The notes under the pieces were generated by a model, which had not been told where the DNA came from, did no database searches, and saw only the letters and a list, made by a program, of their open reading frames with translations. The position numbers and the translations under genes are program-made. From an uncultured delta proteobacterium (GTDB lineage: Bacteria > Desulfobacterota > Binatia > UBA9968), in contig CAVUVW010000013.1 of the NCBI GenBank assembly GCA_963745035.1, forward strand, positions 1,376,001 to 1,440,000: 64,000 bases of DNA, in the 5' to 3' direction. Position 1 is the first letter of the stretch. Every line of letters starts with the position of its first letter. Positions 1,765 to 54,560 of this stretch are shown piece after piece.

Positions 1765-1772
1765 GTCGCTTT

Positions 1773-2378
1773 CTACCTGCGGTCGCGCCGCTTCTGGTCG
1801 ATCTCGATGTCCACCTGCTTGGACTTTTCGATGACTTGTTTGGTCTTTTCGATCTCATGCCTGGTCTTTTCCAATTCGAGCCGCGATTTTTCGATTTCCT
1901 GCTTAGATCTTTCCACCGCTTGGCGGTTCTTCTCCAATTCGTCCTGCCACTTTTCCATCGCCCGGCGCGACGCTTCGACGTCTTGCCTGGCCTGCTCGGC
2001 CTCTTTCAAGACACCGATCCAGGCCTGCGACTCCTCCACCCACAAACTCGACGGATAGGCGGATACGACCTGAGCAAACGCCGCCTTGGCTTTTGCCAAG
2101 TCTCTTTGGGGATTGTCCGGGTGCGCGTGGACGATCCCCGTTTTGTACACCGCCGCGTCGGCCGGCGACTTGTCGCGCGCCGCTAGCGCGACGCTCTGAA
2201 AGGCGCGCAGCGAGCCTTCGTAGTCGCCGCCGACCAGCAGGCGCTCGCCGCTCTGCATGATTTCGCCCATCGCGCGCTCCGGGCTCGCATCCCGCCCGAG
2301 ACTGCAACCGGCGACACATACTAACAAGGCAAGACAAAAATAAAAGTGCTGCCGTTGCCCGGCTCGCTCTCGGCCCAT
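1773..2378 (-). CDS. Lipoprotein with TPR-like helices and coiled-coil tail (QseG/YfhG-like by position)
   Basis: Lipobox-like LVCVAGC, helical repeats, heptad E-K-x-K/R repeats; lies between kinase and regulator as in qseEGF/glrK-yfhG-glrR. Confidence 0.7.
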   Translation of the reverse strand: MGRERAGQRQHFYFCLALLVCVAGCSLGRDASPERAMGEIMQSGERLLVGGDYEGSLRAFQSVALAARDKSPADAAVYKTGIVHAHPDNPQRDLAKAKAAFAQVVSAYPSSLWVEESQAWIGVLKEAEQARQDVEASRRAMEKWQDELEKNRQAVERSKQEIEKSRLELEKTRHEIEKTKQVIEKSKQVDIEIDQKRRDRR

Positions 2379-3764
2379 ATTTTCCCGCCGTGAGAGGTAA
2401 TGATCGTTTTGGCGATCGCCAAGCCCAGCCCGGTGCCCTGGCGCGCGTACGGTGTCTGACGATTTCCCTGGTTAAATTTTTCGAAAATCGAAGTCAAGCT
2501 TTCCGCCGGAATTCCCGGTCCCGAGTCTTTCACAGAAATTTCCAGTTTGCCATTGGCCGGTTTCGCGGCGATGCGCACCAGCCCGCCGTTGGGCGTAAAT
2601 TTCACCGCGTTGCCGAGCAAATTGCGCAGCACCTGGAGAATGCGCTCGGAATCGACCCGCACCGGCCGCAGCGCGCCGTCGACGGCGCTTTCCAGCCGGA
2701 TTTTCTTGGCTTCGACCAGAGGCGCGATCTCGGCGAGCGCGCGCTTGATCAAAGGCTCCAGATGGGTGACCTCGAAATCGTAGATCATCATGCCGGCTTC
2801 CATCTTGGAAAGATCCAGCAGCGAGTTGACCACGTTGATCAGGCGATTGCTTTCTTCGGCGAGTATGCCGAGAAGCTTGCGTTGCTTGTCCGTGGTCTCG
2901 CCGCCCACGCCATCGAGCAACAGCCCGGTGCCCTCTTTGATCGAAGTGAGCGGCGTGCGCAGCTCGTGCGACATGGAAGCGAAGAAATCCGCCTTCAAGC
3001 GATCGAGCTCGTGCAGCTTTTCGCACATGGAGTTGATCGCGGCAGCCAATTCGCCGATCTCCGGCGGCGAGCGCACCAGCAATTTTCCTTCAAAATTTCC
3101 GTCGGCGATCTCCCGCGTCTTGTGTTTCAACAAAGCGATGGGCCGGGTGATGCTTTTGGTGATCCACAGCGACAGCAGGACGATGGCGAGCAGGCAGGCA
3201 ACCGAGATCAGAGTAGAGACCTCGCGCGCTTGGTCCGCGGCGGTGGCCAGGTCGGTGACCTTGGCGTAGGTCAACTGCTGTTGATTGACGCGCAGTCTCT
3301 CGAACGACCCCAGCATGGAATCGATCAGCGCGTCTTTATCCTGCTTGAATTGGGCCCACTGGTAGGGCTTGCCCGCGCGCACGAGCCGACCTTCGCCGCT
3401 CGACAATCTCGTCGTAGCGACGAAAATCCCGGCCGATGCGCTGCAGGATCGGAGTCGCAGCCGCATCTTGCAATTGGAGCGCGCTTTCCAAGCGCCCTTC
3501 GAACTCGATCTTGAGCCGCACGAATTGCAGGTACCACGTCTCGTCCCGAGTGATCGCGAATTTCTGCTCGGCGCGGCTCTGCGCCAGCAGCAGATCGGCC
3601 AGCGTCTTCTCGTGATCGAGAATGCGGTTGTCGACCTTGAGAATCGACTCGGTGAGCCGGCGAAAGTCGCGCAGTTGCAGCACGGCATGCGCGCCGGCGA
3701 GCGCGACCGCGAGGAAAATCGCCAGATAACCGAACGTCAGGCGCGAAAACAGGCTCAACCGCAC
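2321..3764 (-). CDS. Sensor histidine kinase, HAMP + HisKA + HATPase (GlrK/QseE-like); one frameshift near 3400
   Basis: N-terminal TM and periplasmic part in ORF 3336..3764; second TM, HAMP, SHELRTPL H-box, N/G1/G2 boxes in ORF 2321..3688. Confidence 0.88.
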
Positions 3765-3797
3765 GTGGGTGGCTTCCTCGCTTTGGACCGCGCACGA

Positions 3798-4931
3798 CTA
3801 CCGCGCTCGGGAGCCCGGCGCGAGATCGCAAAGTTCCTGCTGCTCCGTGTCAGCGGCCAGCAATTTTTGCGAGAACTGCTCCAGGCGCCGGTCGGCATTT
3901 TGGTAGCCGGATTGGGCGTGCGTCAAATGCTTTCCCAGCAGCGCGAACTCTTCACGAAATTTGGCGAAGTCGCCTTGCAGGCGGCTCAGATACTGAATGA
4001 TCTCTTGGGCGCGGTCTTCGATCTTCATGCCCCGCAGGCCCAGCACGATCGCCTGGAGATAGGCATACAAGCTATTCGGCGAAACCGGCACCACGCGTTT
4101 GGCCATCGCGTACTGGGTCAAATTCTTCTCGTCCGCTGCGTCATCCTTGATGATCGTTTCATAATAAACGTTTTCCGCCGGGATATACATGAGCGCGAAA
4201 TCATAGGTGCCCTCGTCGGGAAGAATGTATTTGCCGGCGATGGCGTCGATATGCTTTCTCACGTCGGCGGCGAACTGCTTTTTTGCCCGGTTCTTTTCCT
4301 CCTCGCTGGCCGCTTCCAGGATGCGTTTGAAGTTCTCGAGGGGAAACTTGGCGTCGACCGGAACCAGCGCGGCGCCGAGCTTGATCACCGCGTCGACCTT
4401 CTCGCCGCTGCGAAAACCGTGCTGCGTGGAAAAGTGCTGCAGCGGCAGGATCTGGGCCAGCAGATCCTCCAGAAAAAACTCCCCCAAGCCGCCGCGCAGT
4501 TTCGGCGCGCGCAAGATTTCCTGCAGCGAAGCGATATCCTTGCCCACCTCAAAAATTTTGCGATTGGCTTCTTCCAGGCCGCCGAGGCTGCGCTCGACGC
4601 TGCCGACCACGCGCGCCGCGTTGTCCAGGCGCTCGCCCAGGCTGCGCTGGGTCAGGTTCAACACTTCGGCGTTTTCCCGCAGCCGCTCGTTGACATGGCC
4701 GAGGAGCTGGCCCAACTGCTGCTGGATCGACTGCGCGTTGCCGTCCAACGCCTGGCCAAACTGCGCGCGCAGCTGCTCGATCTGCTGCTGCAGCAACAGC
4801 AGCGAAGCGTCGTCGTTCTTCTCTTGGAGAACCGCGCGCAAGCGGCTGGTAAACCACCAACCGAGAAGCGTCAAAACCAGGACCGCGAGGAGAAGGATGA
4901 GAGCGAAGAGAGTAACGGGTTCCACGATCAC
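3798..4931 (-). CDS. rmuC: DNA recombination protein RmuC
   Basis: N-terminal TM, coiled coil, RGGLGEFFLE, VDAKFPL, FALMYIPAE, VSPNSL motifs of the RmuC family. Confidence 0.93.
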   Translation of the reverse strand: MIVEPVTLFALILLLAVLVLTLLGWWFTSRLRAVLQEKNDDASLLLLQQQIEQLRAQFGQALDGNAQSIQQQLGQLLGHVNERLRENAEVLNLTQRSLGERLDNAARVVGSVERSLGGLEEANRKIFEVGKDIASLQEILRAPKLRGGLGEFFLEDLLAQILPLQHFSTQHGFRSGEKVDAVIKLGAALVPVDAKFPLENFKRILEAASEEEKNRAKKQFAADVRKHIDAIAGKYILPDEGTYDFALMYIPAENVYYETIIKDDAADEKNLTQYAMAKRVVPVSPNSLYAYLQAIVLGLRGMKIEDRAQEIIQYLSRLQGDFAKFREEFALLGKHLTHAQSGYQNADRRLEQFSQKLLAADTEQQELCDLAPGSRAR

Positions 4932-4941
4932 CGTGAGCGCA

Positions 4942-5154
4942 TCAGAGGAGTCTCACGGCGTATTCGAGGATCTCGCTGAGCTTGCGAATTTGTGTGGCGC
5001 GCATGGAGCGTTCTTCGCGGGGGGCGTTGAAGTAATCGTCGACGCTTTTTTTCATGTTCCATTCGAGCAACTCAACGCATTGCTCGATGCTCATTTTCTC
5101 CGAACGGCGACGGCGCGCCTGATGCAGTTCGCGGATCTGGATGAGCTGGCCCAT
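4942..5154 (-). CDS. Small hypothetical protein (~70 aa)
   Basis: MGQLIQIRELHQARRRR...ILEYAVRLL fills the gap between aguA and rmuC; helical, no recognised family. Confidence 0.55.
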   Translation of the reverse strand: MGQLIQIRELHQARRRRSEKMSIEQCVELLEWNMKKSVDDYFNAPREERSMRATQIRKLSEILEYAVRLL

Positions 5155-5188
5155 ACAAGCGGCTAGAATAGGGGAGTGAAAAGATTTG

Positions 5189-9085: not shown

Positions 9086-9902
9086 GTGAGCGACAAGTCA
9101 ATCGAACAAAAATTCACCCGAATTGCTGGAAGTCATGGCGCGCTTGCGCGGCGAGGCCGGCTGTCCATGGGACAAGGAGCAGACGCACCTCTCTCTCAAG
9201 CCCTGCCTGCTCGAAGAAAGCTACGAGCTTCTCGACGCCTTGGACAGCGGCGATGCGAACAAGCTCAAGGAGGAGTTGGGCGACGTCTTACTCCAAGTGG
9301 TTTTTCACGCCCAGATCGCCCGCGAAGAAGGCCGGTTCACCATCGAAGACGTGATTGCGCAGCTCACTGAAAAACTTATTCGCCGCCATCCCTACGTCTT
9401 TGCCGGCGAGCCGCTGCCCGAGGACACCGCGTCGGTGTTGAAGCAGCGCATGCAAATCAAAGCGAGCGAAAAAGAAGACGGCGAGGTGAAATCGGCGCTC
9501 GGCAACGTGCCCAAAGCCATGCCGGCGTTGGCGCGCGCGCAGTCCATTTCGCGGCGGGCGGCTCATCTCGGCTTCGAGTGGCCTGACATCGAGCAGGTTT
9601 GGAAAAAAGTCGATGAGGAAATCCACGAGCTCAGGGAAGCCGCGGCGTCCGGGAACACATTGCGAACCGGCGAAGAGGTCGGCGATCTGCTCTTTACGCT
9701 CGTCAATATCGCGCGTTTTCTCGACGTCGAATCGGAAGAAGTCCTCGCCCAGACCGTCGATCGCTTCATCCGCCGCTTTCAGCACATCGAAACCAAGCTG
9801 CGCGAGGCGAACAAGAGCTTCGATCAGTCATCGCTCGAGGAAATGGATCGGTATTGGGAAGAAGCCAAGGCGCTCGAAGCCCAAGCAAAAAATCCAAAAT
9901 GA
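9086..9902 (+). CDS. mazG: Nucleoside triphosphate pyrophosphohydrolase MazG (frameshift near 9118)
   Basis: GCPWDKEQT, EESYE, EELGDVLLQ, EEVGDLLF tandem MazG domains. GTG 9086 with GGAG RBS is out of frame by one base. Confidence 0.92.
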
Positions 9903-10877
9903 GTCCCGAGCAGCCAAGAATCGTTTTCCTCGACGCCGCGACTTACGGCGATATCGCGCTCGAGCGCTTTACGCGCCAAGTGGGATTGCGCCGTCCATCA
10001 AGTCACTCGTTCGGGCGACACGGCGCAACGGCTCGCCGGCCGGTCGATCGCGGTCACCAATAAAGTCGTCATCGATAAGGCGATCTTGCATTCGCCCCAA
10101 GCACGAGAACTGAAACTCATCGCCGTGGCGGCCACCGGCACCGACATCATCGATCGCGAGGAAGCGCAGCGCCGCGGTGTCAAAGTTTGCAACGTGCCCG
10201 GGTACGCGACCCAATCGGTGGCGCAATTTACCATGGCGCTGATTCTAGAATTGGCTACGCATGCCGGGCATTATGGCAATGCCGTGAGCATGGGAGAGTG
10301 GGAAAAAAGCCCCGTTTTCTCTCTCCTCACTTATCCGGCGATCGAGCTCAGTGGAAAAAAACTCGGCGTCGTCGGCTACGGCAGCATCGGCAAGGCCGTG
10401 GCGCGCATGGCGCGCGGCTTCGGCATGGAAATTCTGATGGCGGCGCGGCCGGGGACGAGCGGGCCGATACCCGATGGGCGCGTAGCGCTGGAACAATTGC
10501 TGCGCGAAGCGGATATCGTTTCGCTCCACTGCCCGCTGGCGCCCGAGACGCGCAACCTGATCGACCAGCGCACTCTCGCGCTGATGAAACCGACGGCCTT
10601 CCTGATCAACACCGCGCGCGGCGCGCTGGTCGACGAAGCCGCACTGATCGATGCGCTGCGAAACCGGCAAATCGCCGCCGCGGCTCTCGACGTGATCACC
10701 CAGGAGCCGCCGCCTGCGGAGCATCCGATAATTCTCGCCGCCCGCGAGCTGGACAATCTGATCGTCACGCCCCACACCGCCTGGTCCGCGCGCGAAGCGC
10801 GCGAACGTCTGCTCAAAGAGGTCGAAGAAAACATCGCCGCATTCCTGGAAGGCCACGACCGTAATCGCGTGGCGTAA
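9899..10877 (+). CDS. D-2-hydroxyacid dehydrogenase (glycerate dehydrogenase/HprA-like); frameshift(s) near 9980-10020
   Basis: MSPEQPRIVFLD N-terminus in another frame; GYGSIG, SLHCPL, INTARG, LDV..EPP, TPHTAW motifs. Confidence 0.9.
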
Positions 10878-20478: not shown

Positions 20479-21830
20479 TGCGGACCCAACAGATTCATAT
20501 CATCAGTCTGGGCTGCGCCCGCAATCTGGTGGATTCCGAAGTCATGGCAGGGCTCTTACAAAAAAACGATTACCGGATCGTCCACGAGCCGGCGGACGCC
20601 GATATCGTGCTGGTCAACACCTGCGGCTTCATCGGCCCCGCCAAGGAAGAATCGATCGAGACCATTCTCGAAGTTTCCCGCCTCAAGGAAGAAGGCAAGG
20701 TCAAAAAGCTCGTCGTCGCCGGCTGTCTGTCGCAGCGCTACCCGGATGAATTGGCCGGTGAATTGCCGGAGGTGGACCTGTTCATCGGCACCGGCGAAGT
20801 GCCGCGCATCGCTGAAATCCTGCGCCAGCACGACGCCGACTCGGCCCGCCGGAAATACGTCGGGCTTCCCAGCTATCTCTACGATGAGACCACTCCCAGA
20901 TTGAGATCGACGCCGTCCTACACCGCCTTTCTCAAGGTCTCCGAGGGCTGCGATCACAAGTGCGCTTTCTGCATCATTCCTCAACTCCGCGGCCCCCACC
21001 GCAGCCGTTCCATCGATTCGGTCGTGAGCGAGGCCGCCGCCCTCGGCGGGAGCGGCGTGAAGGAAATCAATCTCATCGCTCAGGACCTCACGGCCTACGG
21101 CCGGGACCGTAAAGACGGCACCACCTTGCACGGTTTGCTGCGCGAGCTGGCTGAAGTCGACGGCGTCGAGTGGATCCGCCTCTTGTACGCGTACCCCAAT
21201 TTTCTCGACCAGGGCCTGCTTGATGTGGTTCGCGACAGCGACAAGATTTGCAAGTATATCGATATCCCGTTCCAGCATGTCAGCCAAGCGCTTTTGCGCC
21301 GCATGCGCCGCGGCAAGAGCGGCAGCGCGGTGCGCGAAGCCGTCGAGAAACTTCGCTCTGCGATTCCCGGACTGACTTTGAGAACATCGTTGATCGTGGG
21401 CTTTCCCGGGGAAACCGAAGCGGACTTTGCCGAGCTTTTGGACTTTGTCGAAGCGACCCAATTCGAGCGCCTGGGGGTCTTTAAATACTCCGAGGAAGAA
21501 GGCACCGTGGCCGCGCACATGACCGGGGCCGTGGCGGAAGAGGAAAAGGAGCGGCGCTGGCAGGAAATCATGGACCTGCAATCTTCCATCTCGCGAAAAA
21601 AGAACGAGGCCTTGATCGGTAGTATTCAGCGAGTTATGATTGACGAGTTCGATTATGGCTCAGAACGGGCGAGCGGCCGAACGCAAGCCCACGCGCCGGA
21701 AGTAGACGGCGCCGTGTACGTCGACTGGAGCCGGGAAGATGGGGGCGGTGCTCGAGGGGGGGAAATGATCGACGTGAGAATTACCGCTGCACTAGACTAC
21801 GACTTGATGGGTGAAAAATTCCATGCCTAA
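20475..21830 (+). CDS. rimO: Ribosomal protein S12 methylthiotransferase RimO
   Basis: SLGCARNLVDSE, VNTCGFI..AKEES, radical SAM CDHKCAFC, C-terminal TRAM (APEVDG). Confidence 0.96.
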   Translation: MMRTQQIHIISLGCARNLVDSEVMAGLLQKNDYRIVHEPADADIVLVNTCGFIGPAKEESIETILEVSRLKEEGKVKKLVVAGCLSQRYPDELAGELPEVDLFIGTGEVPRIAEILRQHDADSARRKYVGLPSYLYDETTPRLRSTPSYTAFLKVSEGCDHKCAFCIIPQLRGPHRSRSIDSVVSEAAALGGSGVKEINLIAQDLTAYGRDRKDGTTLHGLLRELAEVDGVEWIRLLYAYPNFLDQGLLDVVRDSDKICKYIDIPFQHVSQALLRRMRRGKSGSAVREAVEKLRSAIPGLTLRTSLIVGFPGETEADFAELLDFVEATQFERLGVFKYSEEEGTVAAHMTGAVAEEEKERRWQEIMDLQSSISRKKNEALIGSIQRVMIDEFDYGSERASGRTQAHAPEVDGAVYVDWSREDGGGARGGEMIDVRITAALDYDLMGEKFHA

Positions 21831-22281
21831 AGCCGATCCCGAAAAAGAAAAAAAACAGCGAAAAGAGTTCTTGAAGCAGGCTTCCGAGATGCTCGAAGAG
21901 ATGAAGCGCTCCCTGATGAAGGAAATGCAGGGGCGCGTCAAGGAAGAGACAGAAGGCGTCAAGGACGAGGGTCGCGATACCTACGATCTTGCCAGCGATG
22001 AGCGGGATCGCGAGATCAATTTTATTCTCAACGATCGCGAGCGCGAAAAGCTTTTGGCGATCGACGAGTCGCTCCAGCGGATTGCCGACAAAACCTACGG
22101 CATTTGCGAAAGCTGCGAAGGCGAGATCCAGCTCGGTCGGCTTAAGATTCTTCCGTTTACCCGCCTGTGCGTCAAATGCCAGGAGGAAAACGAGAAGGAA
22201 AGCAAACGCCAGAAGACCCTGGAAAACGAACGAAGCTACCGCAAGCTCGACGTCACCGATTTTGAGGAAGACGGTTTCTAG
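21823..22281 (+). CDS. dksA: DksA/TraR C4 zinc-finger transcription factor
   Basis: Coiled coil with DTYDLA (DxxDxA) tip; CESC...CVKC zinc finger. Confidence 0.85.
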   Translation: MPKADPEKEKKQRKEFLKQASEMLEEMKRSLMKEMQGRVKEETEGVKDEGRDTYDLASDERDREINFILNDREREKLLAIDESLQRIADKTYGICESCEGEIQLGRLKILPFTRLCVKCQEENEKESKRQKTLENERSYRKLDVTDFEEDGF

Positions 22282-22294
22282 ATCTTCTTCCCGC

Positions 22295-22336
22295 AAATAG
22301 AAAGGGCGCGGTCAAAAGCCGCGCCCTTTTCTATTT
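22295..22336. terminator. Bidirectional intrinsic terminator
   Basis: AAATAGAAAGGGCGCGG...CCGCGCCCTTTTCTATTT between convergent genes. Confidence 0.85.
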
Positions 22337-22366
22337 GGGAATCGAGTCGGGAAATTCAGCAGGCCT

Positions 22367-22746
22367 TTACTCTCCCTTGGCCGGAGTGAATTGCATCTTC
22401 GTTAAGAAGTTTTTCTCGCCCTTGGTGACGTACTCGACCGAGGCCGACGATCCTAATCCGACTTCAGACATTTTGACTTTCGATTCTTTGATCTCAGTGG
22501 CCTTGGTTTTCGCGTTGTAATCCAACGTCACCAGCTTGCCTTCCTTGGTAACGACGATCATATAGTTCTTTTCGGTGTCGAGCAGGCCGATATCGCCGGA
22601 AATTTTCTCGGCCTTGGCCTTTTCTCCACCTTCGGCTTGCCCTTAGCCGGCTCGTCCGCTTTTTTCTCCTGGGAGACCACGGGAGACGCCAAAGCCAGCG
22701 CCAGAATGACCGCCATACCGATTACACCATTCGATTTCGCTCTCAT
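22367..22746 (-). CDS. Small secreted protein, PAKGE-family type B copy 1 (frameshift near 22620-22650)
   Basis: Signal peptide in ORF 22558..22746 joins AKAEKISGDIGLLDTEKNYMIVVTKEGKLVTLDY...GLGSSA...PAKGE of ORF 22367..22561; paralogue of 25343..25696. Confidence 0.85.
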
Positions 22747-22794
22747 TTACCTGTCCTCCTGGTTCAAAACTATAAAAGATTCGACCGAGCGTCC

Positions 22795-23208
22795 TTACTC
22801 GCCCTTGGCCGGCACGAATTCCACGCTCGAAGCGATATTTTTCTCGCCTTGCTTGGTGTACTGAACCACCGCTGAGGAGCCAAGACCGATATCCGCGACT
22901 TTAGCGTTGACCGGCTCTCTTTGGGTAGGCTGGAACTTTGGGTCGAAATCGATGGTAACGAGTTTTCCTTCCTTCGTGACCAAGATCATATAATTCTTCT
23001 CCGTGTCCAGCAGCCCCACATCTCCGGCCACCTTGGTCCCCTTCGCCTCTGCCTTCTTCTCACCCGGATCCTTAGCCTCAGCTTTCGCCGCCGGGGCTGG
23101 AGCCGGTGCTGCGGGCTTCGGCGCCATTTCCTCCTGAGTCGAGCAGGCAGCCATGAGGAACATCAGTGACAAGGCTGCGACCCCGGTAATCGACAACAAG
23201 TGTTTCAT
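22795..23208 (-). CDS. Small lipoprotein, PAKGE-family type A copy 1
   Basis: Lipobox LMAAC, Pro/Ala linker, conserved GDVGLLDTEKNYMI...PAKGE domain; GGAGG RBS. Confidence 0.9.
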   Translation of the reverse strand: MKHLLSITGVAALSLMFLMAACSTQEEMAPKPAAPAPAPAAKAEAKDPGEKKAEAKGTKVAGDVGLLDTEKNYMILVTKEGKLVTIDFDPKFQPTQREPVNAKVADIGLGSSAVVQYTKQGEKNIASSVEFVPAKGE

Positions 23209-23328
23209 CTTACAACCTCCGCGCTAGTGAAAATTTGCTTGGAATAGCGTGGATACTTATCGTGAGCGTCCTGGCATCTCAATACGCTTAAGGTATGATT
23301 TTGCCCCAACGCGCCTGCCTGACGCATA

Positions 23329-23342
23329 GGTCTAGAGTCGTA
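23329..23342 (-). promoter_or_regulatory. Candidate operator TACGACTCTAGACC
   Basis: Matches the motifs at 26171, 28496 and 28593; lies in the divergent region between the lipoprotein and the response regulator. Confidence 0.5.
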
Positions 23343-23436
23343 TGCATTGTGTGGCACGGGATTACCGGTTTGCATCGTTAGGCGTTTGATGTATTTTCAC
23401 GTCGATGGTGCTCCGCAATTCAATGCGAGGTCTTAC

Positions 23437-24099
23437 ATGTTACCGATCAAAGTCGTAATCGCGGATGATCACGCGCTTTTTCGGGATGGGCTGCGAAAAA
23501 TCCTCTCCCTGGAAAAAGATATTCTCGTGGTCGGTGAAGCGGGAAACGGGGATGAAGTCCCTAGGATCGTCGAACGCACGAAACCCGACGTGCTGCTCCT
23601 CGATTTAAAGATGCCCAAGGGCGACGTGGTGCAAAACCTGCTCGAGGTCGGGGCCAGAAGTCCCGCGACGCGAGTCATGATTCTCACGGCCTTTTCCGAC
23701 GAAGAAAACGTCCTGAACGCCGCCAAAGGCGGCGCCAAAGGCTATGTTCCCAAAGGCGTTCCTTCGGCCACCCTCCTGCAAGCGATTAAAGTCGTTCACG
23801 GCGGCGGCTTTTGGATCGACAAGGAAATCCCTTCCTGGGAAACCTTTCAGGAAATCGTTGAAGTGCAGTCGACGCCTCGAGAAGCGGCGCCGCAGGTCGA
23901 TGAGAACATCAAAGCGTTAACCAAGCGAGAAATGGAAATCCTCCGGCTCGTCGCCGAAGGACTGACCAACGAGGAAATCGGCAAGAAGATTTTTATCAGC
24001 GAAAAAACCGTGAAGACCCATCTCACCAATATTTTCGACAAGCTCAAGGTCAATAACCGTTTCAAGGCGGCGCTTATGCTGATCGGCCACCCCAACTGA
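23437..24099 (+). CDS. NarL/FixJ-family (LuxR HTH) response regulator
   Basis: VVIADDH..FRDGL, LLLDLKMP, LTKREMEIL..GLTNEEI..ISEKTVKTH; ATG 23437 preceded by GAGG. Confidence 0.95.
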   Translation: MLPIKVVIADDHALFRDGLRKILSLEKDILVVGEAGNGDEVPRIVERTKPDVLLLDLKMPKGDVVQNLLEVGARSPATRVMILTAFSDEENVLNAAKGGAKGYVPKGVPSATLLQAIKVVHGGGFWIDKEIPSWETFQEIVEVQSTPREAAPQVDENIKALTKREMEILRLVAEGLTNEEIGKKIFISEKTVKTHLTNIFDKLKVNNRFKAALMLIGHPN

Positions 24100-24128
24100 T
24101 TCCTAGTAGGAAAACATCCTTCAGCGCC

Positions 24129-25337
24129 ATGGCGGCACTCAGAAAAATCACACCCGAGGAAAGCTGGCTCGCGCAACGGGAAAACGCGGTGGCTTGGATG
24201 CGCGTCGCGTTCGCGGCAGTCGCTGTTTTCGTCATCCAGCTAAACCCGGAGCGCGTCGCCCGATTCCCCGAGTTGTCGGCGTTCTCCCTCGGTTCGTTTT
24301 TTATTTACAGTCTCGTGGTCCTCTATCTCGCCTTGCACGGCAAGCTTACGTCTTCGCCGCTCGGCATCCTGACAAACTCGCTCGACGTCGTGTGGATCGC
24401 CGCGATCGTTTTTTCCACCGGCGGGACGCGAACGCCGTTTTTCTTCTACTACACGTTTCCGGTGATCACGGCGAGCATCCGCTGGGGGCTCAAGGGCAGC
24501 ATTCCCGTGGCTCTGGTCGGCATATTTCTTTACGGCGTGGTCCGCCTTACGCTCGCCGCGGAATCCATGGAGGCGCCGATCGGCATCGACGTGCTGCTCA
24601 TCCGCAGTCTCTACTTGATCTTGCTGGCCTGCATCTTCGGCTACATCAGCGAGTTCGAAAGAAACCAGAACCAACGCCTTCTTGCGCTCTCTAAAACGGC
24701 GGGCGAGGTGGCCGCGTTCCAGGAGCGCCGCAGAATCAATTTCGAATTGCACGATGGCATCTTGCAGTCACTGGCGACGCTCATTCTGCGCATCGAAGGC
24801 TGCGGCAAACGTCTGCCGGACTCCCAGAAAGAGCTAGCCGAGGAGCTGCGCTCGTTGGAAGAATTTACCCGCGATTCGATGAAGCAAATCCGGCAGTTTC
24901 TTTCCGGACAGCAGTCCAAACCGCTGGTCGCCGGCACGTTGATAGAAAAACTGCGCGAGGAGGCCCGCTTCCTGCGTGACGGCATGGGCTTGGACGTCGT
25001 TATCGAGAGCGAGCCTGAAGACTTGGAGCTGCCGCACGACGTGGAGCGGGAAGTCTATTTCGTGCTGCGCGAAGCACTCACCAACGTGACCCGTCATTCC
25101 CACGCCTCGAAAGTCGAGGTTCAGCTCAAATGGAAAAACGGCGTGCTGGAAGGATTCCTCAGGGACAATGGCGTGGGCTTCAACTGCGACCACGTCAAAG
25201 ACGCGCCTGGCTTCGGCTTGAACGGAATGCAACAGAGGATTAAAGAAATCGGGGGAGAACTCCTGGTGAAGTCCTCCCCCGGACAAGGAACCAAGGTGGC
25301 ATTGCAGGTGCCGCTTCAACCAGCGGCAATGGAATAG
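24129..25337 (+). CDS. Multi-TM HisKA_3 sensor histidine kinase
   Basis: 5-6 hydrophobic segments, then ERRRINFELHDGILQSL H-box, EALTNV..HS, DNGVGF, GFGLNGM..R. Confidence 0.93.
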   Translation: MAALRKITPEESWLAQRENAVAWMRVAFAAVAVFVIQLNPERVARFPELSAFSLGSFFIYSLVVLYLALHGKLTSSPLGILTNSLDVVWIAAIVFSTGGTRTPFFFYYTFPVITASIRWGLKGSIPVALVGIFLYGVVRLTLAAESMEAPIGIDVLLIRSLYLILLACIFGYISEFERNQNQRLLALSKTAGEVAAFQERRRINFELHDGILQSLATLILRIEGCGKRLPDSQKELAEELRSLEEFTRDSMKQIRQFLSGQQSKPLVAGTLIEKLREEARFLRDGMGLDVVIESEPEDLELPHDVEREVYFVLREALTNVTRHSHASKVEVQLKWKNGVLEGFLRDNGVGFNCDHVKDAPGFGLNGMQQRIKEIGGELLVKSSPGQGTKVALQVPLQPAAME

Positions 25338-25342
25338 ATGCT

Positions 25343-25696
25343 CTATTCACCCTTAGCGGGCCGGAAAATCATCTTGGTCAGATAGTTTTTGTCCCCTTTG
25401 GTCATATACTCCACATTGGCAGAGGAACCTAGCCCGACATCAGACATCTTCGATTTCGTGTCCCGCAGCTCAGTCACTTTGGTTTTGCTATTGTAATCAA
25501 GGGTGACCAACTTTCCATCCTTCGTCACCACGATCATGTAATTCTTCTCGGTGTCCAAGAGGCCGATGTCTCCAGCTACTTTCTCGGCTTTAGCCTTTTC
25601 CTTTGCAGCGTCAGCTTTCTTTTCTTGAGCAAGAACTGGAGCCGACAGCACGCCCACCATCAACACGGCCGTTAGACTTGCAATTTCCGCCTTCAT
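25343..25696 (-). CDS. Small secreted protein, PAKGE-family type B copy 2
   Basis: Sec signal peptide (..APVLA/QE), GDIGLLDTEKNYMI, GLGSSA, C-terminal PAKGE. Confidence 0.9.
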   Translation of the reverse strand: MKAEIASLTAVLMVGVLSAPVLAQEKKADAAKEKAKAEKVAGDIGLLDTEKNYMIVVTKDGKLVTLDYNSKTKVTELRDTKSKMSDVGLGSSANVEYMTKGDKNYLTKMIFRPAKGE

Positions 25697-25743
25697 TGCG
25701 TTCTCCTTGTGCGTTCTCGTTTTGATCCCATTCTTTCGTAATA

Positions 25744-26148
25744 TTACTCACCCTTGGCCGGGAGGTATTCGATGCTTGTTGCCACGTTTTTATCACCCTG
25801 CTTGGTGTACTGGACTGTTGCGGAGGAGCCTAAACCGATATCCGAGACCTTTGCCGGATGCGGAGTTCGCTCGATCGCCTGCGCCTTGGCATCGAAATCG
25901 ATCGTCACCAGCTTTCCTTCCTTCGTCACGATGATCATGTAGTTCTTCTCGGTGTCGAGAAGCCCAATATCGCCGGCGATTTTAGTAGCCTTGGCTTTTT
26001 CGGCGGGCGCCTTCGCCTCAGGCGCCGGTGCAGGCGCTGCGGGCTTCGCCGCTGGCTTCGGTGCCATATCCTCTTGTGTTGAACAGGCTGAGAGCGCCAA
26101 CATACACGAGACAGAAACTACTCCTCCCAGTCGCAGAAAACCTTTCAT
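25744..26148 (-). CDS. Small lipoprotein, PAKGE-family type A copy 2
   Basis: Lipobox LALSAC, Pro/Ala linker, same conserved domain ending PAKGE; GAGGAGG RBS. Confidence 0.9.
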   Translation of the reverse strand: MKGFLRLGGVVSVSCMLALSACSTQEDMAPKPAAKPAAPAPAPEAKAPAEKAKATKIAGDIGLLDTEKNYMIIVTKEGKLVTIDFDAKAQAIERTPHPAKVSDIGLGSSATVQYTKQGDKNVATSIEYLPAKGE

Positions 26149-26161
26149 AACACCTCCTCAT

Positions 26162-26210
26162 TAAGACTTAAGTCTAAAGTCGTATACTTTAGCGAATGCG
26201 ACGTTGTCAA
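26162..26210 (-). promoter_or_regulatory. Putative sigma70 promoter with overlapping operator
   Basis: TTGACA (26205-26210, minus), then TACGACTTTAGACT and the palindrome AGACTTAAGTCT directly before the RBS. Confidence 0.55.
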
Positions 26211-26821
26211 GCGTCTTTTTGTACCCTACGGCCTGCAGTTTGAATTGCGTGGTGGCGACACCGTGTAGCCGCGACATCAGACGTTTCGATGCCGAATTCG
26301 ATGGAGATACAAACCGTAAGCGACTCACGCACAGCCCGGCCTTCTCGATGTTCGTTGTGCGGGCTATGTGCCGCGTTTGACCTTTGAGCCGAGCACAAGT
26401 CAGTCACTGGGCGTCAGAAATTTACGGTGATCAATCCGATCGGACAACTACTGAACCCTTCGCTTGCCGTACAAGCGAAGGTGATAAAAGCACCTTGATT
26501 AGCAGATGTCGCAGAAGAGGCTTAGATCACAAAATGTAGCGACTCTGCGCGATCCCTCACGATTTACGCAAGGCAGCATTCTGGTGGCTTCCGGTTGGCT
26601 GAATAATGTACGCCCGTTTTCTGCCCAGTCAGACACGTTCGGCTCATCGATCCAGCCAGCGTGTCCGATCAATTTCGCGCCTGGCTGGACACTGGAAACT
26701 CCAGCACAGAGCCCTATTGCCATGGGAGATGATTTTCCGGAGTCGCATATTCCAGAGTCTTGCGACTACGCATGGCGGCAGCACGACAGCAATCACTGCC
26801 CATCCCAAACCTTTGTTCTCC

Positions 26822-26854
26822 AAAAAAAAGGGGGAGCCGTGGCTCCCCCTTTTT
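26822..26854. terminator. Intrinsic terminator (bidirectional-capable) of the porin-like gene
   Basis: A8-GGGGGAGC-CGTG-GCTCCCCC-T5. Confidence 0.88.
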
Positions 26855-26874
26855 GCTCACGCGTTCAGCTCTCG

Positions 26875-28412
26875 CTAGAACGTGTATCTCCAGTTGAGCA
26901 TGACATCGACCCAGTCGCCGCCTTTACCGTTTCGACATCCCGTAGCGGGGGTAACATTGGGCGTGTTGCAAATCCCGAGATTATGCGCGGCCTGGTTGGC
27001 TCCATTGCGTAGGTTCGACGCGTCATACCAGAGAAAGCTGGTACCCACGCTCATCCGCGGCGCAATGAAATACCAGATATCCCACTCGCGGAGCAGAATG
27101 CGGGTACGATGGAATTGATTCATAGTGTCCGCCGATACCCGTGTCAGCACAAGGGATGCCCGTGTTGCCGTTACAATCCATCGACATGTTCACGCGCTCA
27201 AAGTGGGTGCCGATCAAGATCGATCCCGGTGTCGTCGCCGATCCGGTAAAGAACCCCTTCGGGCTCCACAGGAAAAGATCGTGGCCGATCAGGAAGCTGT
27301 TGGCGCTCTTTCTTGCACGTCCGCTCGGCTTCCACGCCCGGTCTTCGCTCTGCTGGAATGAGCCCATTCCGCGCAACGTATAGGGACCGATATTCCACAC
27401 GATGCCGGGACCGTGGCGCGATGGAGGCCATCGCCGATCGAATCGGCGCCCGTGTCAAACAAGGTCTGCCTGCCACCGTCGCCGTGATCCTGTACACGGT
27501 AACGGCTGCAGCCATTGTCAGCGCGCGATTATCCGCGTTACAGAACCAACTGAACCATACTCGAAAGTGTAGACCCCGAATCCATTTACTTTTTAGCTGC
27601 GAGAACGGTTGAATGCTCAGGTAGGCGTTGAAGTCCTTGCGATCGGTAAAGCTCTGCAACCCGTCGTCGCCTTCGGCGATCGAAGACATGCCGAGCTGGA
27701 ACTTGCCGATACGCCCTGGAATGAAGATGCCGGCCAACGAACGATCATCCCAGTTGAGCACGATGCCTTGTCCCGCCCGTCCGGTGTTGAACCCATCGTT
27801 GCGGGTGTGAAGATCGTACTCCGCCTGCGCGCCGACCGCCCCGGATCCCTGCCGCGCCAAGCTCCCGCCATGAGCGTTCTGCACTTCCATGCCCAACTGC
27901 ACCGTCGGCAGCCAGGGATGCAGATCCTCGGCGTGGAACTGCAGCGCGCCGCGCTGCAGGATCGACCCGAAATCGTCGCCCGTAGCATTCTTGCCGGTGC
28001 CCGTGCCCCATCCGTCCAAGTCCAACGTCGCTTCGAGCTCCCACAGACAGTTGTTGATGCAGTAAATAAACCCGGGCCGAAACCGCCGGCCCATCAACTC
28101 GCCTTGGGTCCGGCCGACCTGGTCGCGCCCGGATTCGAAGTTCATGCGGAAGTGCGACTCTAACGTGAACCGCACGCCCCACGACTTGTCCGCCGCTTCG
28201 ATGTTCAAGCCGTTGCCCGGTCGATACTCGAACGTCGGCAACGCTGCTGCCGCCGCCGTCGCTTCTTTCTTCAACTCGACCTGCTGGGTCTTTAACTGCA
28301 TCAGTTCCTGCTCGAGCGATTTGATCTTGTCATCGACGCTCTGCGCAGAAGCCGGGGCCGCAGCGAAAAGCACAGCCGACAGCAGTGCCAATTTCACCAA
28401 CCTCTTCTTCAT
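26875..28412 (-). CDS. Outer-membrane beta-barrel/porin-like protein (several frameshifts)
   Basis: Signal peptide and coiled coil (DKIKSLEQELMQLK), amphipathic beta strands across ORFs 27198..28412, 27023..27400 and 26875..27150, C-terminal WRYTF BAM-type Phe. Architecture reminiscent of OprO/P-type porins. Confidence 0.78.
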
Positions 28413-28467
28413 TGTGCCTCCTTTGCCTCCAGTTTTTCTTTAATGCACTCGTGTCTAATTTCGGCGA

Positions 28468-28606
28468 TTTTTAGCCCAACTGTTACAACCTGTCAAGCCT
28501 AAAGTTGTAGCCTATGCGTAATTAACTACGTCAATTATTGTACTATCATGCTACGAAATGGCCGTTTTTAACTCGCATCCACTCGTCTGTCAAGCCTAAA
28601 GTTGTA
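28468..28606 (-). promoter_or_regulatory. Tandem duplicated promoter/operator units
   Basis: Exact 20-bp direct repeat CTGTCAAGCCTAAAGTTGTA at 28490-28509 and 28587-28606. On the minus strand each reads TACAACTTTAGGC-TTGACA-N17-TAAAAA. Confidence 0.75.
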
Positions 28607-28767
28607 TATAATATACGCCTAGTTGCGTTGAGTCATTAGGAATAGCCAGACTTACGGTTTACACTCGTCGATAGTTTTGCCGTTCGGGAGATTTGCCAGA
28701 CTCTTCGCGATCCCGAACGTTACCGCGAATATTGTGATAATAAGCGTGCTTAGGTAGACTTCGGGCG

Positions 28768-29541
28768 ATGTTGACGAAGCGAGTGATTCCCTGCCTCGAT
28801 GTCAAAGGAGGACGGGTGGTCAAAGGAACCCGTTTCCTCGATCTCCGAGATGCAGGCGACCCCGTTGAGGTTGCCCGCCTCTACGACGCCGAAGGGGCCG
28901 ACGAGCTCTGCTTCCTCGACATCACCGCGTCGCACGAGCAGCGAGGCATTATTCTTGACGTCGTAGCGCGAACCGCCGAGCAGGTTTTCATGCCGTTAAC
29001 CGTCGGCGGCGGCATCAGCCAGATTGACGACATCCGCGCTCTTCTTCGAGCCGGTGCCGACAAAGTTTCCATCAACACCGGCGCGGTGAATCGCCCGGAG
29101 TTTGTCCGGGAAGCCGCGGAAGTGTTTGGCAGTCAATGCATCGTTGTCGCCATCGACGCCAAACGATCCGGCGACGGATGGGAAGTTTTCACCCACGGCG
29201 GCCGTAACCCGACCGGAATCGACGCCTGCGCGTGGGCGGAGAGAATGGCGAGCTATGGCGCCGGCGAGATCCTGCTTACCAGCATGGACTGCGATGGCAC
29301 TAAAACCGGCTACGACCTTGCGCTGACGCGCGCAATCGCCGACCGAGTGGGCATACCGGTGATTGCTTCAGGCGGGGTCGGCAATCTCGAGCATATCTAC
29401 GAGGGCCTGACTCGTGGCGGAGCGAGCGCGGCGCTGGCCGCTTCGATTTTTCATTTCCGCGAATATTCGGTCGCCGAGTGCAAGGACTATCTTCGCGCCC
29501 GGGGCGTGGCGGTGCGTCCGGCACAGCGCGATACGGTTTGA
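28768..29541 (+). CDS. hisF: Imidazole glycerol phosphate synthase cyclase subunit
   Basis: [48 protein letters not shown]. Confidence 0.98.
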
Positions 29542-48930: not shown

Positions 48931-49965
48931 GTGAACAGACGTACAATCTCGGCAGTCGTAGTTCTCGCGGCTTTGTATGCCCCCCAAGGGCATGCCCAGG
49001 AGCCCTTTTACAAAGGCAAGACCATCACCATCCTCGCCGGTACCGGAGCCGGCAACGTGTACGACATCTTTGCGCGGCTGTTCGCTCGACACATGGGCAG
49101 GCATATCCCGGGCAATCCGGAGATCATCGTGCAAAACATGCCCGGCGCCGCGTCGATGATCGCGGCCAATCACCTCACGAACGTGACAAAGCCCGACGGA
49201 TTGACCATCGGCGCCATCTTTCCGGCTCTGTATTTCGACCAAATCATTCGCCGCCCGGAGGTGAAGTTCGACTGGGGGAAGTTTATCTGGCTCGGCAGTC
49301 CCGCCAAATCAGACCAGCTGCTCTACATGCGCGCCGACTCCCCGTATAAGACGATTGAGGACGTCGTGAAAGCCTCTCCCCCTCCCAAGTGCGGCGCAAC
49401 CGGAACGTCCTCGACCGCTTACTACATACCTAAACTGCTCGATCAAAACATCGGGACGAATTTCGAAATTGTGTTGGGTTACAAGACCGGCACGGATATC
49501 GATCTGGCGGTGGAAAGAGGCGAAGTGATCTGCCGCGCCTTTACGATCGAAGCCTTTTTCGCCCGCGAGCCGTTTTTTACCTGGGTGAAGAAAAAATTTG
49601 TCCGGATTCTCGTCCAAACCGGAAAGAAGCGCGACGAGCGTCTGAAGGACGTGCCAACCATTCCTGAGCTCCTGGACAAGTACAAGACAAATGACACGGG
49701 TCGGCGCCTGGCGGATCTAGTTTTAGCCGCCGGCGAATTCGGCCGGCCCTATGTCCTGCCTCCCGGCACACCCGCCGACAAAGCAAGGATTCTCCGCGAA
49801 GCATTTGCAAAGACGCTGAAAGATGAAGCGCTGCTCGCGGACGCCAAAGCAAGCAATCTCGACGTGGAACCGAGCAGCGCCGAGGAACTCGATAGGCTCG
49901 CTAAAGAAGTCACCAGCCAATCGCCGGAAATCGTCGACAAAATGAAAAAACTGCTAGACAAGTGA
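48931..49965 (+). CDS. Bug/TctC substrate-binding protein 5
   Basis: Signal peptide, FYKGKTI, HIPGNP..QNMPGA, KPDGLT, LAVERGEV, PPGTP. Confidence 0.92.
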   Translation: MNRRTISAVVVLAALYAPQGHAQEPFYKGKTITILAGTGAGNVYDIFARLFARHMGRHIPGNPEIIVQNMPGAASMIAANHLTNVTKPDGLTIGAIFPALYFDQIIRRPEVKFDWGKFIWLGSPAKSDQLLYMRADSPYKTIEDVVKASPPPKCGATGTSSTAYYIPKLLDQNIGTNFEIVLGYKTGTDIDLAVERGEVICRAFTIEAFFAREPFFTWVKKKFVRILVQTGKKRDERLKDVPTIPELLDKYKTNDTGRRLADLVLAAGEFGRPYVLPPGTPADKARILREAFAKTLKDEALLADAKASNLDVEPSSAEELDRLAKEVTSQSPEIVDKMKKLLDK

Positions 49966-54006: not shown

Positions 54007-54486
54007 ATGGAAAAGCTCAGCCATTTGGATGAACAAGGACGCGCCCGTATGGTCGATGTCAGCGAAAAAGAAGTCACCAGCAGGACCGCGGTGGCGCGGG
54101 GAGCGATTCACATGCGCCCCGAAACCTTGGCGCTGATCTTGGAAAGCAAAATCGAGAAAGGCGACGTCTTTTCGGTCGCGCGCGTGGCCGGCATCATGGC
54201 CGCAAAAAAGACTTCGGAGCTGATTCCCATGTGCCATCCGCTCAATATCACCTCTGTGGAAATCGAGCTCACACCGCAGGAAACTCCAGCGCGAGTCGAC
54301 ATCGAAGCGCTCGTCCGTGTGAGCGGCAAGACCGGCGTGGAAATGGAAGCTTTGACGGCAGTCTCCGCGACGGGCCTGACGATCTACGACATGTGCAAGG
54401 CCGTCGATCGCGAAATGACCATCGGCGAAATCCGGCTAGTCAAAAAAAGCGGCGGCAAGAGCGGCACGTTTATCAGGAAAGAATAG
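54007..54486 (+). CDS. moaC: Cyclic pyranopterin monophosphate synthase MoaC
   Basis: [46 protein letters not shown]. Confidence 0.97.
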
Positions 54487-54560
54487 GCGTGAGCGAAGGG
54501 CGCGAGGCGCGAGTTCGATCTACGCCTATTTACCTCTCGCCCGGCGCTTCATCGGGCACC

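Follow-up and report, generated by a model that had tools for sequence, protein, structure and literature searches.

A candidate cell-envelope regulon of Candidatus Binatia with paired OB-fold proteins, a NarL-type two-component system and a porin gene

Do the genes that surround a two-component system in an uncultured member of the Binatia form one system, and what would such a system do? The question is raised by a 64-kb stretch of contig CAVUVW010000013.1 (assembly GCA_963745035.1, an uncultured delta proteobacterium), which we refer to as the window; all coordinates are window positions unless a locus is named. The window contains four paralogous genes for small exported proteins, arranged as two pairs of a lipoprotein (type A) and a soluble protein (type B), with the genes of a response regulator (RR) and a sensor histidine kinase (HK) between the pairs and a porin-like beta-barrel gene upstream. 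Taken together, the data are best read as a lineage-specific cell-envelope regulon of Candidatus Binatia, to which we assign a probability of roughly 55%: the kinase and regulator appear to control the two A-B pairs and the porin gene, probably adjusting the envelope. The units and genes concerned are listed below; OB stands for oligonucleotide/oligosaccharide binding and ORF for open reading frame.

22304-26210: module core, comprising the B1 terminator, B1, A1, operator 1, RR, HK, the B2 terminator, B2, A2, operators 2a and 2b and the A2 promoter
26832-28606, minus strand: barrel unit, comprising a terminator, the OprO/OprP-like porin gene, a promoter and two upstream half-site repeats
22367-22746, minus strand: B1, soluble type B, present as two overlapping ORFs (N-terminal, 22558-22746; C-terminal, 22367-22561)
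22795-23208, minus strand: A1, lipoprotein of 137 amino acids with signal, lipobox Cys, Pro/Ala/Lys linker, OB-fold domain and PAKGE end
23437-24099, plus strand: RR of the NarL/LuxR class, 220 amino acids; the ORF opens at 23347 and the likely start, MLPIKV, is at 23437
24129-25337, plus strand: HK with five to six membrane helices in residues 18-176, the H-box FELHD at 205 and HATPase_c
25343-25696, minus strand: B2, soluble type-B paralogue of 117 amino acids, intact
25744-26148, minus strand: A2, type-A lipoprotein of 134 amino acids, intact
26875-28412, minus strand: OprO/OprP-like porin gene, frame-broken; the product has a signal peptide, an N-terminal coiled coil and the C terminus ..WRYTF

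An earlier note on this DNA had described four paralogues in two operons of the order A then B, and the ORFs and their alignment agree with that description. According to the ORF list, the pairs lie on the minus strand, with regulator and kinase on the plus strand between them. The four proteins share a domain of about 76 amino acids and 29 invariant columns, including the C-terminal PAKGE, which is far beyond chance; identity to A1 is 69% for A2, 50% for B2 and 52% for the C-terminal piece of B1. A tblastn search found exactly four copies in the window and no further one. Both A proteins carry a lipobox (..AAC-S and ..SAC-S) followed by a Pro/Ala/Lys-rich linker, whereas B2 contains no Cys and has a signal that looks cleavable (..VLA-QE).

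The same two types recur in 61 loci that we retrieved with B as the bait and that contain 160 family ORFs. Of these loci, 47 are labelled as Binatia or as unclassified delta-proteobacterial metagenome-assembled genomes. The other 14 carry different phylum labels but have the same housekeeping flank (~70 to 94% amino acid identity), and we assign them to the same lineage. A lipobox on the first gene and none on the second was observed in 57 of 69 adjacent family pairs. Nine pairs were lipobox-free on both genes; among these are first genes that are truncated at a contig end, are frame-broken or have a lipobox that the pattern missed. The one pair with a lipobox on both genes is due to a false lipobox match. 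Cys22 was invariant in 67 of 67 A-type rows. Ala, Lys, Pro and Glu abound in the A linker, which spans 30 to 66 residues (median, 42), and Lys, Glu and Ala in the B linker, whose median length is 19 residues. In a tree of 150 rows the A/B label changed 11 times, and a 62-row clade (Shimodaira-Hasegawa-like approximate likelihood ratio test, 95) held 61 B rows; judged from these sequences, the split is old and the types are distinct. The proximal and distal pairs did not separate clearly into orthologous groups (26 label changes on a tree of 83 columns), and this scatter could reflect gene conversion, repeated duplication or too little signal. PAKGE, which had been called invariant, is so in the four copies of the window but varies among the 160 ORFs as (P/A)(A/K)-K-G-(G)-(E/D), for example, PAKGGD, KKGGD or AKKGE, and the K-G tail is missing from distant relatives. 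The tail Lys was kept in 67/67 A rows and 69/70 B rows and the tail Gly in 63/67 and 68/70, respectively.

The linkage of the family to the two-component system was conserved. The recurrent gene order was gcvT> hisF< [barrel>] [pal>] A> B> HK< RR< A> B> dksA< rimO< lolA< ftsK<, where arrowheads give the direction of transcription, and the module of the window is accordingly flanked by ftsK, lolA, rimO and dksA on one side and by hisF and gcvT on the other. RR or HK was adjacent to family genes in 45 of the 61 loci, both were present in 35, and family genes lay on both sides of the system in 26. Among the 15 loci that span hisF to dksA, 12 contained the two-component system (L021 with the regulator only) and 3 did not (L023, L044 and L050). 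The divergent arrangement of RR and A was kept in 39 of 41 loci. In one clade (L043, L046, L048 and L049), the system stands between exactly one A gene and one B gene.

A shared operator joins these genes, an element that goes beyond the content of the earlier note and is new here as a sequence motif. Across the 61 loci it is a 16-bp 7-2-7 inverted repeat, TACGACT-NN-AGTCGTA, often TAAGACTTAAGTCTTA. In the window, a 22-nt direct repeat (D7) lies upstream of both A1 and A2. Its 13-nt core, TACGACTYTAGAC, has five window matches at two or fewer mismatches versus 0.82 expected, and four of the five lie upstream of A1 (one), A2 (one) and the barrel gene (two). Sites that fit the strict 7-2-7 pattern (at least 12/14) numbered two versus 0.04 expected. 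The sites and the promoters that they accompany are as follows.

23327-23342: operator 1, TAGGTCT-AG-AGTCGTA on the plus strand and TACGACTCTAGAC on the minus strand, 12/14, in the divergent RR/A1 intergenic region
26162-26177 (11/14) and 26169-26184 (12/14): operators 2a and 2b, overlapping, directly 5' of the A2 ribosome-binding site
26181-26210, minus strand: putative A2-B2 promoter, TTGACA (26210-26205), 18 nt, TATACG, read from the sequence
28467-28496, minus strand: promoter-like site of the barrel gene, TTGACA-18-AAAAAT, 10/12 matches, from a scan
28497-28509, minus strand: half-site-like operator copy TACAACTTTAGGC, abutting the barrel -35 box at about -49 to -37
28594-28606, minus strand: second TACAACTTTAGGC-TTGACAG copy, 97 nt upstream of the first and also beside TTGACA

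Operator 1 is located 119 nt 5' of the A1 ATG and 95 nt 5' of the likely RR ATG, and most loci have the same site in the middle of their RR-A intergenic region. Before the distal A gene, relatives have two sites at 18 to 60 nt, placed over a conserved AGTATAC/G and the leader. This stretch, likely the -10 element, is kept in the relatives, and in the window the -10 element of the A2 promoter overlaps the left half of operator 2b; the A2-B2 promoter is absent from the list of our consensus promoter scan. Upstream of the barrel gene (28467-28640) a unit of about 20 nt, TACAACTTTAGGC-TTGACAG, occurs twice, and either copy may represent a promoter that has a regulator half-site of its own.

The distribution of the operator over the loci is highly uneven. 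Strict sites numbered 70 in the 28,355 nt located 5' of first-of-pair, barrel and Pal genes and 17 in the 580,183 nt elsewhere, resulting in an 84-fold difference; most of the 17 in fact precede barrel, Pal or A genes. Loose matches were found upstream of 74/80 first-of-pair family genes, 39/41 RR genes, 7/7 barrel genes and 10/15 Pal genes. The controls gave 6/37 for lolA, 7/40 for rimO, 10/41 for dksA, 5/15 for gcvT, 9/27 for ftsK, 11/35 for HK and 22/67 for the second-of-pair family gene, and the 14/22 obtained for hisF concern a region that hisF has in common with a barrel, Pal or A gene. Furthermore, the operator stays with A and B in loci of altered architecture, such as the order A-HK-RR-B of L043, L046 and L049.

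As described in PMC4549865, a NarL dimer binds inverted heptamers 2 bp apart as its preferred site, represses at frdA from a site at -4/+6 and activates napF from -40 to -49 and yeaR from -38 to -47. By analogy of position, the regulator of the module would activate the porin gene, where its site lies at about -49 to -37, and would repress A2-B2, where the sites cover the -10 element and the leader. The phosphorylated regulator would bind the operator sites as a dimer, autoregulate and set the levels of A/B, porin and Pal.

The domain make-up of the two proteins agrees with the NarL-type two-component system that had been recognized between the two operons. The regulator matched Response_reg (1.3e-21) and GerE (1.7e-22), that is, a receiver (REC) and a DNA-binding domain, and its best NCBIfam matches were MadR (161 bits vs a cut-off of 300) and NarL (142 vs 250). 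The kinase matched HisKA_3 (4.5e-12) and HATPase_c (8.8e-12). Its hydropathy profile has several membrane helices, with five strong peaks (residues 20-38, 51-69, 78-96, 125-143 and 155-173) and a weaker one, and it has no periplasmic sensor domain, with loops of at most about 12 amino acids throughout residues 18-176; we therefore infer that it senses a membrane-borne cue or an accessory protein. Its NCBIfam matches MctS, MacS, UhpB and LiaS were all far under their cut-offs, and by score it is neither NarQ (72 vs 553 bits) nor NarX (63 vs 578).

We then consider the family that this system would control. The window proteins A and B have no Pfam or NCBIfam family; weak matches (CIF, sCache_2, RsgI_N, LytA, LppK and others) were rejected, all being far under the cut-offs. 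B2 has relatives in 5,337 clusters at 90% identity (E ≤ 1e-3), and among the 120 relatives listed none has a Pfam domain and nearly all the named ones are hypothetical. A phmmer search with A2 against 1.84 billion representatives gave 120 matches, 50 of them at E ≤ 1e-10, and reached the multi-repeat DUF5666 proteins P0151 (E, 5.5e-14) and P0155 (E, 2.8e-13), which the Pfam DUF5666 model matches at 4.1e-27 and 2.2e-52, respectively. The residues aligned by phmmer and by Pfam coincide (344-417 vs 346-413 in P0151; 172-270 vs 198-264 in P0194). The DUF5666 model itself matched no window protein at E ≤ 0.1 and 6 of 88 alignment members.

The AlphaFold 2 (AF2) model of B2, calculated from the 88-row alignment, has a mean predicted local distance difference test (pLDDT) score of 74, and 10-residue blocks over residues 41-110 average 75 to 91. 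It contains strands at 38-48, 53-58, 63-67, 73-76, 79-81, 92-100 and 103-112 and an unstructured tail at 113-117. In a Foldseek search of the PDB, CusF structures ranked 1 to 4 (E, 2.3e-4 to 1.4e-3), led by 2vb2 with an E value of 2.3e-4, a target-normalized template modeling (TM) score of 0.72 and 12% identity; further matches were 1zeq, 2qcp, 3e6z and SilF (8bbz), followed by cold-shock and IF1 OB folds. The column counts of the domain contain no conserved His, Cys or Trp, as had been stated of a His/Met metal cluster. Met54 was kept in 70/70 and Met84 in 63/70 B-type rows; in A the corresponding positions are M/L (38/28) and V/I/M (22/22/22) and thus look like core positions. CusF_Ec (PF11604) matched none of A1, A2, B2 and the B1 pieces at E ≤ 0.1, and 6 of the 88 alignment members, remote ones only; a PDB profile search ranked CusF at an E value of 0.11. 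In sum, the model, the homology searches and the column counts describe a CusF-like OB-fold domain that forms a divergent DUF5666 branch and lacks a metal site of the CusF type. The likeness to CusF and DUF5666 suggested previously was thus borne out, in contrast to that to the bacterial OB-fold (BOF) proteins: there was no Pfam match to BOF and no YgiW or YdeI among the 50 Foldseek matches listed. Our full-text literature searches also returned no description of the module, and A, B and the barrel have no Pfam or NCBIfam family, in line with the statement that no described system has this architecture. In the papers that contain it, the term DUF5666 itself occurs once or twice, as a passing mention. 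An ESM Atlas search with the B2 domain returned unnamed clusters only, one DUF5666-bearing (21% of members) at 0.84 and one with DUF1344 at 0.83, which we treat as leads and not as evidence.

Several remote relatives differ in build. P0121 (222 amino acids) is a lipoprotein with two tandem domains. P0137 (321 amino acids), which has two domains, and P0158 and P0162 are secreted proteins in which an N-terminal module that is conserved and a coiled coil of high charge precede one or two domains. The K-G tail is missing from these relatives. The two-domain proteins P0121 and P0137 indicate that two such domains can work side by side. The proposed hetero-oligomer of A and B was modeled with residues 50-134 of A2 and 33-117 of B2, each with its own alignment, along with three controls. 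The interaction prediction score from aligned errors (ipSAE) was 0.62, 0.60 and 0.60 in three runs versus 0.00 for the best of the three controls; the A-B runs agreed in at least 97% of contacts, and partner pLDDT was at least 83. Of 157 solved complexes, 116 attained the ipSAE mark, as did 2 of 215 mismatched pairs, and a value of 0.60 or less occurred in only 18 of the 157 solved complexes and in both mismatches that passed. The model thus lends weak support to an A-B pair.

The barrel gene is broken in the window. According to the ORF list, it consists of an ORF with signal peptide and coiled coil (28412-27198) that continues in other frames to 26875, and a tblastn search with an intact homologue, P0241 (501 amino acids), retrieved the following.

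28418-27456, 27516-27424, 27418-27122 and 27114-26878, minus strand: frame segments of the barrel gene

Identity to P0241 was 59 to 65% over the three main segments and 71% over the short fourth. P0241 has 1,037 relatives, and among the 120 listed every name shown is "hypothetical protein". No Pfam or NCBIfam family was found for the barrel (Porin_O_P included; Pfam at E ≤ 0.1). The AF2 model of P0241 (pLDDT, 76.5; predicted TM score, 0.74) has an N-terminal helix at 29-60, and its predicted fold is that of a 16-strand porin closest to OprO/OprP: Foldseek placed OprO (4rjw, 4e-18) and OprP (2o4v, 8e-18; target-normalized TM score, 0.70) ahead of general porins. The porin-like gene noted upstream of the pairs is therefore real, as judged from its homologue, and is frame-broken here. 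The operator matched upstream of all seven barrel genes whose upstream region is present, and the linkage of the barrel to A and B is limited to a clade.

In 16 loci the regulon appears to include a further envelope gene that does not occur in the window, a paralogue of Pal. This lipoprotein of about 190 amino acids is encoded directly before the distal A gene, between the barrel gene (or hisF) and distal A, and an operator copy lies upstream in 10 of 15 cases. The gene at L052:6751-7308 passes the NCBI Pal model TIGR02802 (129.5 bits vs 125.35); the others are L006:3598-4188, L009:961-1527, L049:3291-3848, L051:1070-1693, L053:4088-4657, L056:3895-4470 and those of nine more loci. In the 727-nt gap of the window (26149-26875), tblastn at E ≤ 10 found no Pal remnant.

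Locus L052 also has four strong operators (12-13/14) before an SBP_bac_6 gene (678-1742) and the genes of TctC (2004-3065) and a fused TctA-TctB (3075-5174), and the regulon may reach solute uptake in that genome. This transporter region (556-5174) lies between hisF and the Pal-A-B genes, and the nearest NCBIfam models of its solute-binding protein are 2-aminoethylphosphonate binding proteins (1e-18, 67 bits vs a cut-off of 310). In the barrel position, L052 (5162-6628) and L056 (2302-3789) encode lipoproteins of 488 to 495 amino acids that are 75% identical to each other. No Pfam family was found for either copy and no NCBIfam family for that of L052, and homology to the barrel was rejected (hhalign probability, 0.3). 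A separate arrangement was observed at L060:1660-2834 and L061:1110-2284, where two non-lipobox copies are followed by a lipobox copy, three genes without a two-component system or the usual flanks; this cluster is a second kind of locus for the family.

An envelope regulon would work as follows. Its lipid and a linker of about 30 to 66 residues would hold type A at a membrane, and A would pair with B in the periplasm. The pair would bind a nonmetal ligand or an envelope component and, by analogy, would work like YgiW/VisP/SipA, periplasmic OB-fold stress proteins under two-component control, at the interface of peptidoglycan and outer membrane proteins; it may also feed back on the kinase.

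A number of points weigh against this reading. Because B was the bait, a kinase without A or B lies outside what the 61 loci can show, and the loci come from related genomes, so that their counts are not independent events. L023, L044 and L050, which have an A-B pair or a lone B and no adjacent system, indicate that A and B can exist without it. A barrel gene was found in only 12 of the 61 loci, or in 7 of 22 when loci that reach hisF are considered. Its operator copies are half-site-like and under the strict threshold, with only 2 of the 70 strict sites located before barrel genes, and the loose motif has a background of 15 to 33%. Binding of the regulator to the predicted operator is inferred from motif geometry and placement. 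The interaction score of A and B was rated weak, and since the two are paralogues, the model cannot separate a heterodimer from a homodimer. A charge complementarity of A and B was rejected: pI values in the window are 5.1 to 5.3 for A versus 8.9 for B, but the family-wide median net charges are -2 versus 0, a contrast that is modest and nonindependent across the family and that we do not use as evidence. Finally, the frame breaks in B1 and the barrel gene may be assembly indels or may mark pseudogenes, perhaps inactive here, and four breaks within 6 kb are dense.

The main rival to an envelope regulon is a role in solute uptake, which we consider unlikely. An OprO/OprP-like porin would admit an anionic nutrient (phosphate, phosphonate or carboxylate), the Lys-rich A and B proteins would capture it and hand it on, and the two-component system would induce the pathway. 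To our knowledge there is no OB-fold solute shuttle of this kind, and the Pal paralogue in the regulon fits envelope structure better. The closest structures to the barrel are indeed the phosphate and pyrophosphate porins OprP and OprO, and 17 Arg/Lys are invariant in the barrel alignment, but the barrel is missing from most loci and has no Porin_O_P match in Pfam. Likewise, the operators before the SBP_bac_6 and TctC/TctA-TctB genes and the proximity of the binding protein to 2-aminoethylphosphonate models, albeit at 67 bits versus 310, come from one locus of 61. The six Lys that are invariant in the A domain and the lack of metal ligands in the A/B domain also suit an anionic solute. More doubtful than uptake is the idea that the A-B pair is the missing extracytoplasmic sensor of the kinase and represents a new class of OB-fold co-sensors in a surveillance circuit like Rcs or Cpx. 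Lipid-anchored A, with a linker that spans the periplasm, together with soluble B would report the state of outer membrane, porin and peptidoglycan, the K-G tail would dock on the kinase or attach to peptidoglycan, and the kinase would set the levels of A/B, porin and the Pal paralogue via the 7-2-7 operator. If true, an envelope surveillance circuit would have arisen independently in an uncultured phylum.

We regard as improbable that A and B are tethers between outer membrane and peptidoglycan like Lpp and Pal, with the lipid anchor and linker of A reaching across the periplasm, the tail Lys docking on or attaching to peptidoglycan and the system tuning stiffness. The length of the A linker, the tail that is unstructured in the model and conserves its Lys and Gly, and the Pal-model gene before distal A with its operator copies would suit such a role, as would the Ser at +2 after the lipobox Cys, which in Escherichia coli directs a lipoprotein to the outer membrane. 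In Lpp, however, the peptidoglycan-attached Lys is the last residue, whereas the tail Lys is third or fourth from the end here; B has the same tail and no anchor, distant relatives lack the tail, and the window has no Pal gene. A role of A and B as CusF/SilF-type Cu(I)/Ag(I) chaperones in a metal resistance under two-component control is very improbable. The metal ligands of CusF are His/Met/Met/Trp; in the domain neither His nor Cys nor Trp is conserved, and the Met positions that B conserves, which would speak for this role, behave as core in A. CusF and SilF are the top fold matches, but the profile search that ranks CusF was not significant and CusF_Ec matches remote members only. CusR is of the OmpR class and the regulator of the module of the NarL class, and no RND pump, P-type ATPase or multicopper oxidase is among the module genes that Pfam and NCBIfam scans and BLAST maps identified, the remaining window ORFs being unscanned. 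Least probable of all is that there is no system, with paralogues duplicated beside an unrelated two-component system and porin gene and a neighbourhood inherited by descent. All loci belong to one lineage and the dksA, rimO, lolA and ftsK flanks are kept too, so that synteny alone is weak evidence. Against simple descent, the operator is concentrated 84-fold upstream of A, RR, barrel and Pal genes, is rare before the housekeeping neighbours and follows A and B in the altered architectures, and the divergent RR/A arrangement is kept almost throughout.

The window contains further features next to the module.

21811-22281: DksA/TraR-type zinc-finger gene, convergent with B1
22304-22326: likely A1-B1 operon terminator, a GC-rich hairpin GGGCGCGG-N7-CCGCGCCC with T's after it, located where the ends of B1 and dksA converge, read from the sequence
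25250-25281, minus strand: terminator-like hairpin of 14 pairs, 3' of B2, which overlaps with the oppositely oriented kinase gene at the 3' end of the latter, from a scan
26832-26849, minus strand: terminator-like hairpin of the barrel gene followed by T8, from a scan

The DksA/TraR-type gene is the constant right-hand neighbour of the module in 43 of the 61 loci and has the GC-rich hairpin at 22304-22326 in common with B1; this hairpin is absent from the list of the terminator scan. An Rfam scan of 22000-29000 at E ≤ 0.1 gave three matches, sX6 (25.4 vs 40), P24 (23.1 vs 100) and Atu_C9 (20.1 vs 40), all under the gathering score and judged to be chance. Elsewhere in the window there is a gene for a TctC-family periplasmic receptor (48931-49965), and no operator copy of at least 11/14 was seen nearby.

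The break in B1 is a base missing from the A-run near 22621-22627; with an added base the reading would continue EKKAKAEKISGDIGLLDTEKNYMI. In agreement, tblastn with B2 gave alignments in two different frames, one of residues 33-117 (22624-22370, 80% identity) and one of residues 10-39 (22713-22621). As judged from Pfam profile positions, two further genes of the window look split by a frameshift: at 54231-55737, a PUA_3 ORF precedes a Methyltrans_SAM ORF of a different frame, whose match begins at profile position 76, and a 2-hydroxyacid dehydrogenase (2-Hacid_dh) ORF (9613-10877) begins at profile position 59. These split genes point to assembly indel errors, which are thus a reasonable cause of the breaks in B1 and the barrel gene.

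Candidatus Binatia is a widespread soil lineage without cultured members, and how it builds and monitors its envelope is nearly unstudied. The module offers a large unannotated family, a defined operator, a compact predicted regulon and a kinase that would sense through the membrane or through partners. If A and B were co-sensors or tethers, they would represent a new way of surveying the envelope outside the Proteobacteria; otherwise, the locus still provides the first functional context for a branch of the DUF5666/CusF-like superfamily.

Compared with known systems, the A/B domain most resembles CusF and SilF in fold, which are likewise small exported OB-fold barrels of five to seven strands. 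The module differs from them by the 12% identity, the missing Pfam match, the lack of a conserved His, Cys or Trp and its NarL-class instead of OmpR-class regulator, and no Cus/Sil efflux genes were identified in it. To DUF5666 (PF18914), a domain without an assigned function, there is sequence homology through its repeat domains in exported proteins; here the domain is single copy, occurs in paired A and B proteins and is accompanied by a lipid anchor and by a K-G tail that is conserved. The P0241 barrel has its closest fold matches in OprO and OprP, at 12 to 13% identity and with no Pfam or NCBIfam match; P0241 is about 75 to 90 residues longer and has the additional N-terminal helix 29-60. 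In the CpxP/CpxRA system a small periplasmic protein is encoded divergently from the system that controls it, as A is from RR, and CpxP in turn modulates the kinase CpxA. CpxP is helical, however, and CpxA has a periplasmic domain; a feedback of A and B on the kinase is put forward here as a hypothesis. NarL/NarX have the same make-up of REC and GerE, and HisKA_3, and an operator of two inverted heptamers that start with TAC and are 2 bp apart. The module scores under the NarL, NarP, NarX and NarQ cut-offs and its kinase has no periplasmic sensor domain, and its heptamer reads TACGACT versus TACCCCT in the engineered NarL site.

The closest match for the way in which the module would work is found in YgiW/VisP, SipA and YdeI, the small periplasmic OB-fold stress proteins of the BOF type. 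These are single soluble proteins, whereas the module consists of duplicated pairs of a lipoprotein and a soluble protein and has no sequence, Pfam or top-50 fold tie to BOF; likewise, QseB belongs to the OmpR class and the regulator of the module to the NarL class. The likeness concerns how these proteins work and does not make the module a member of their group. According to PMC5636140, visP/ygiW is regulated by the adjacent, autoregulated QseBC. SipA of Vibrio cholerae, as described in PMC6370654, is a periplasmic protein that depends on the two-component system VC1638-39; it interacts with OmpA and is able to bind antimicrobial peptides.

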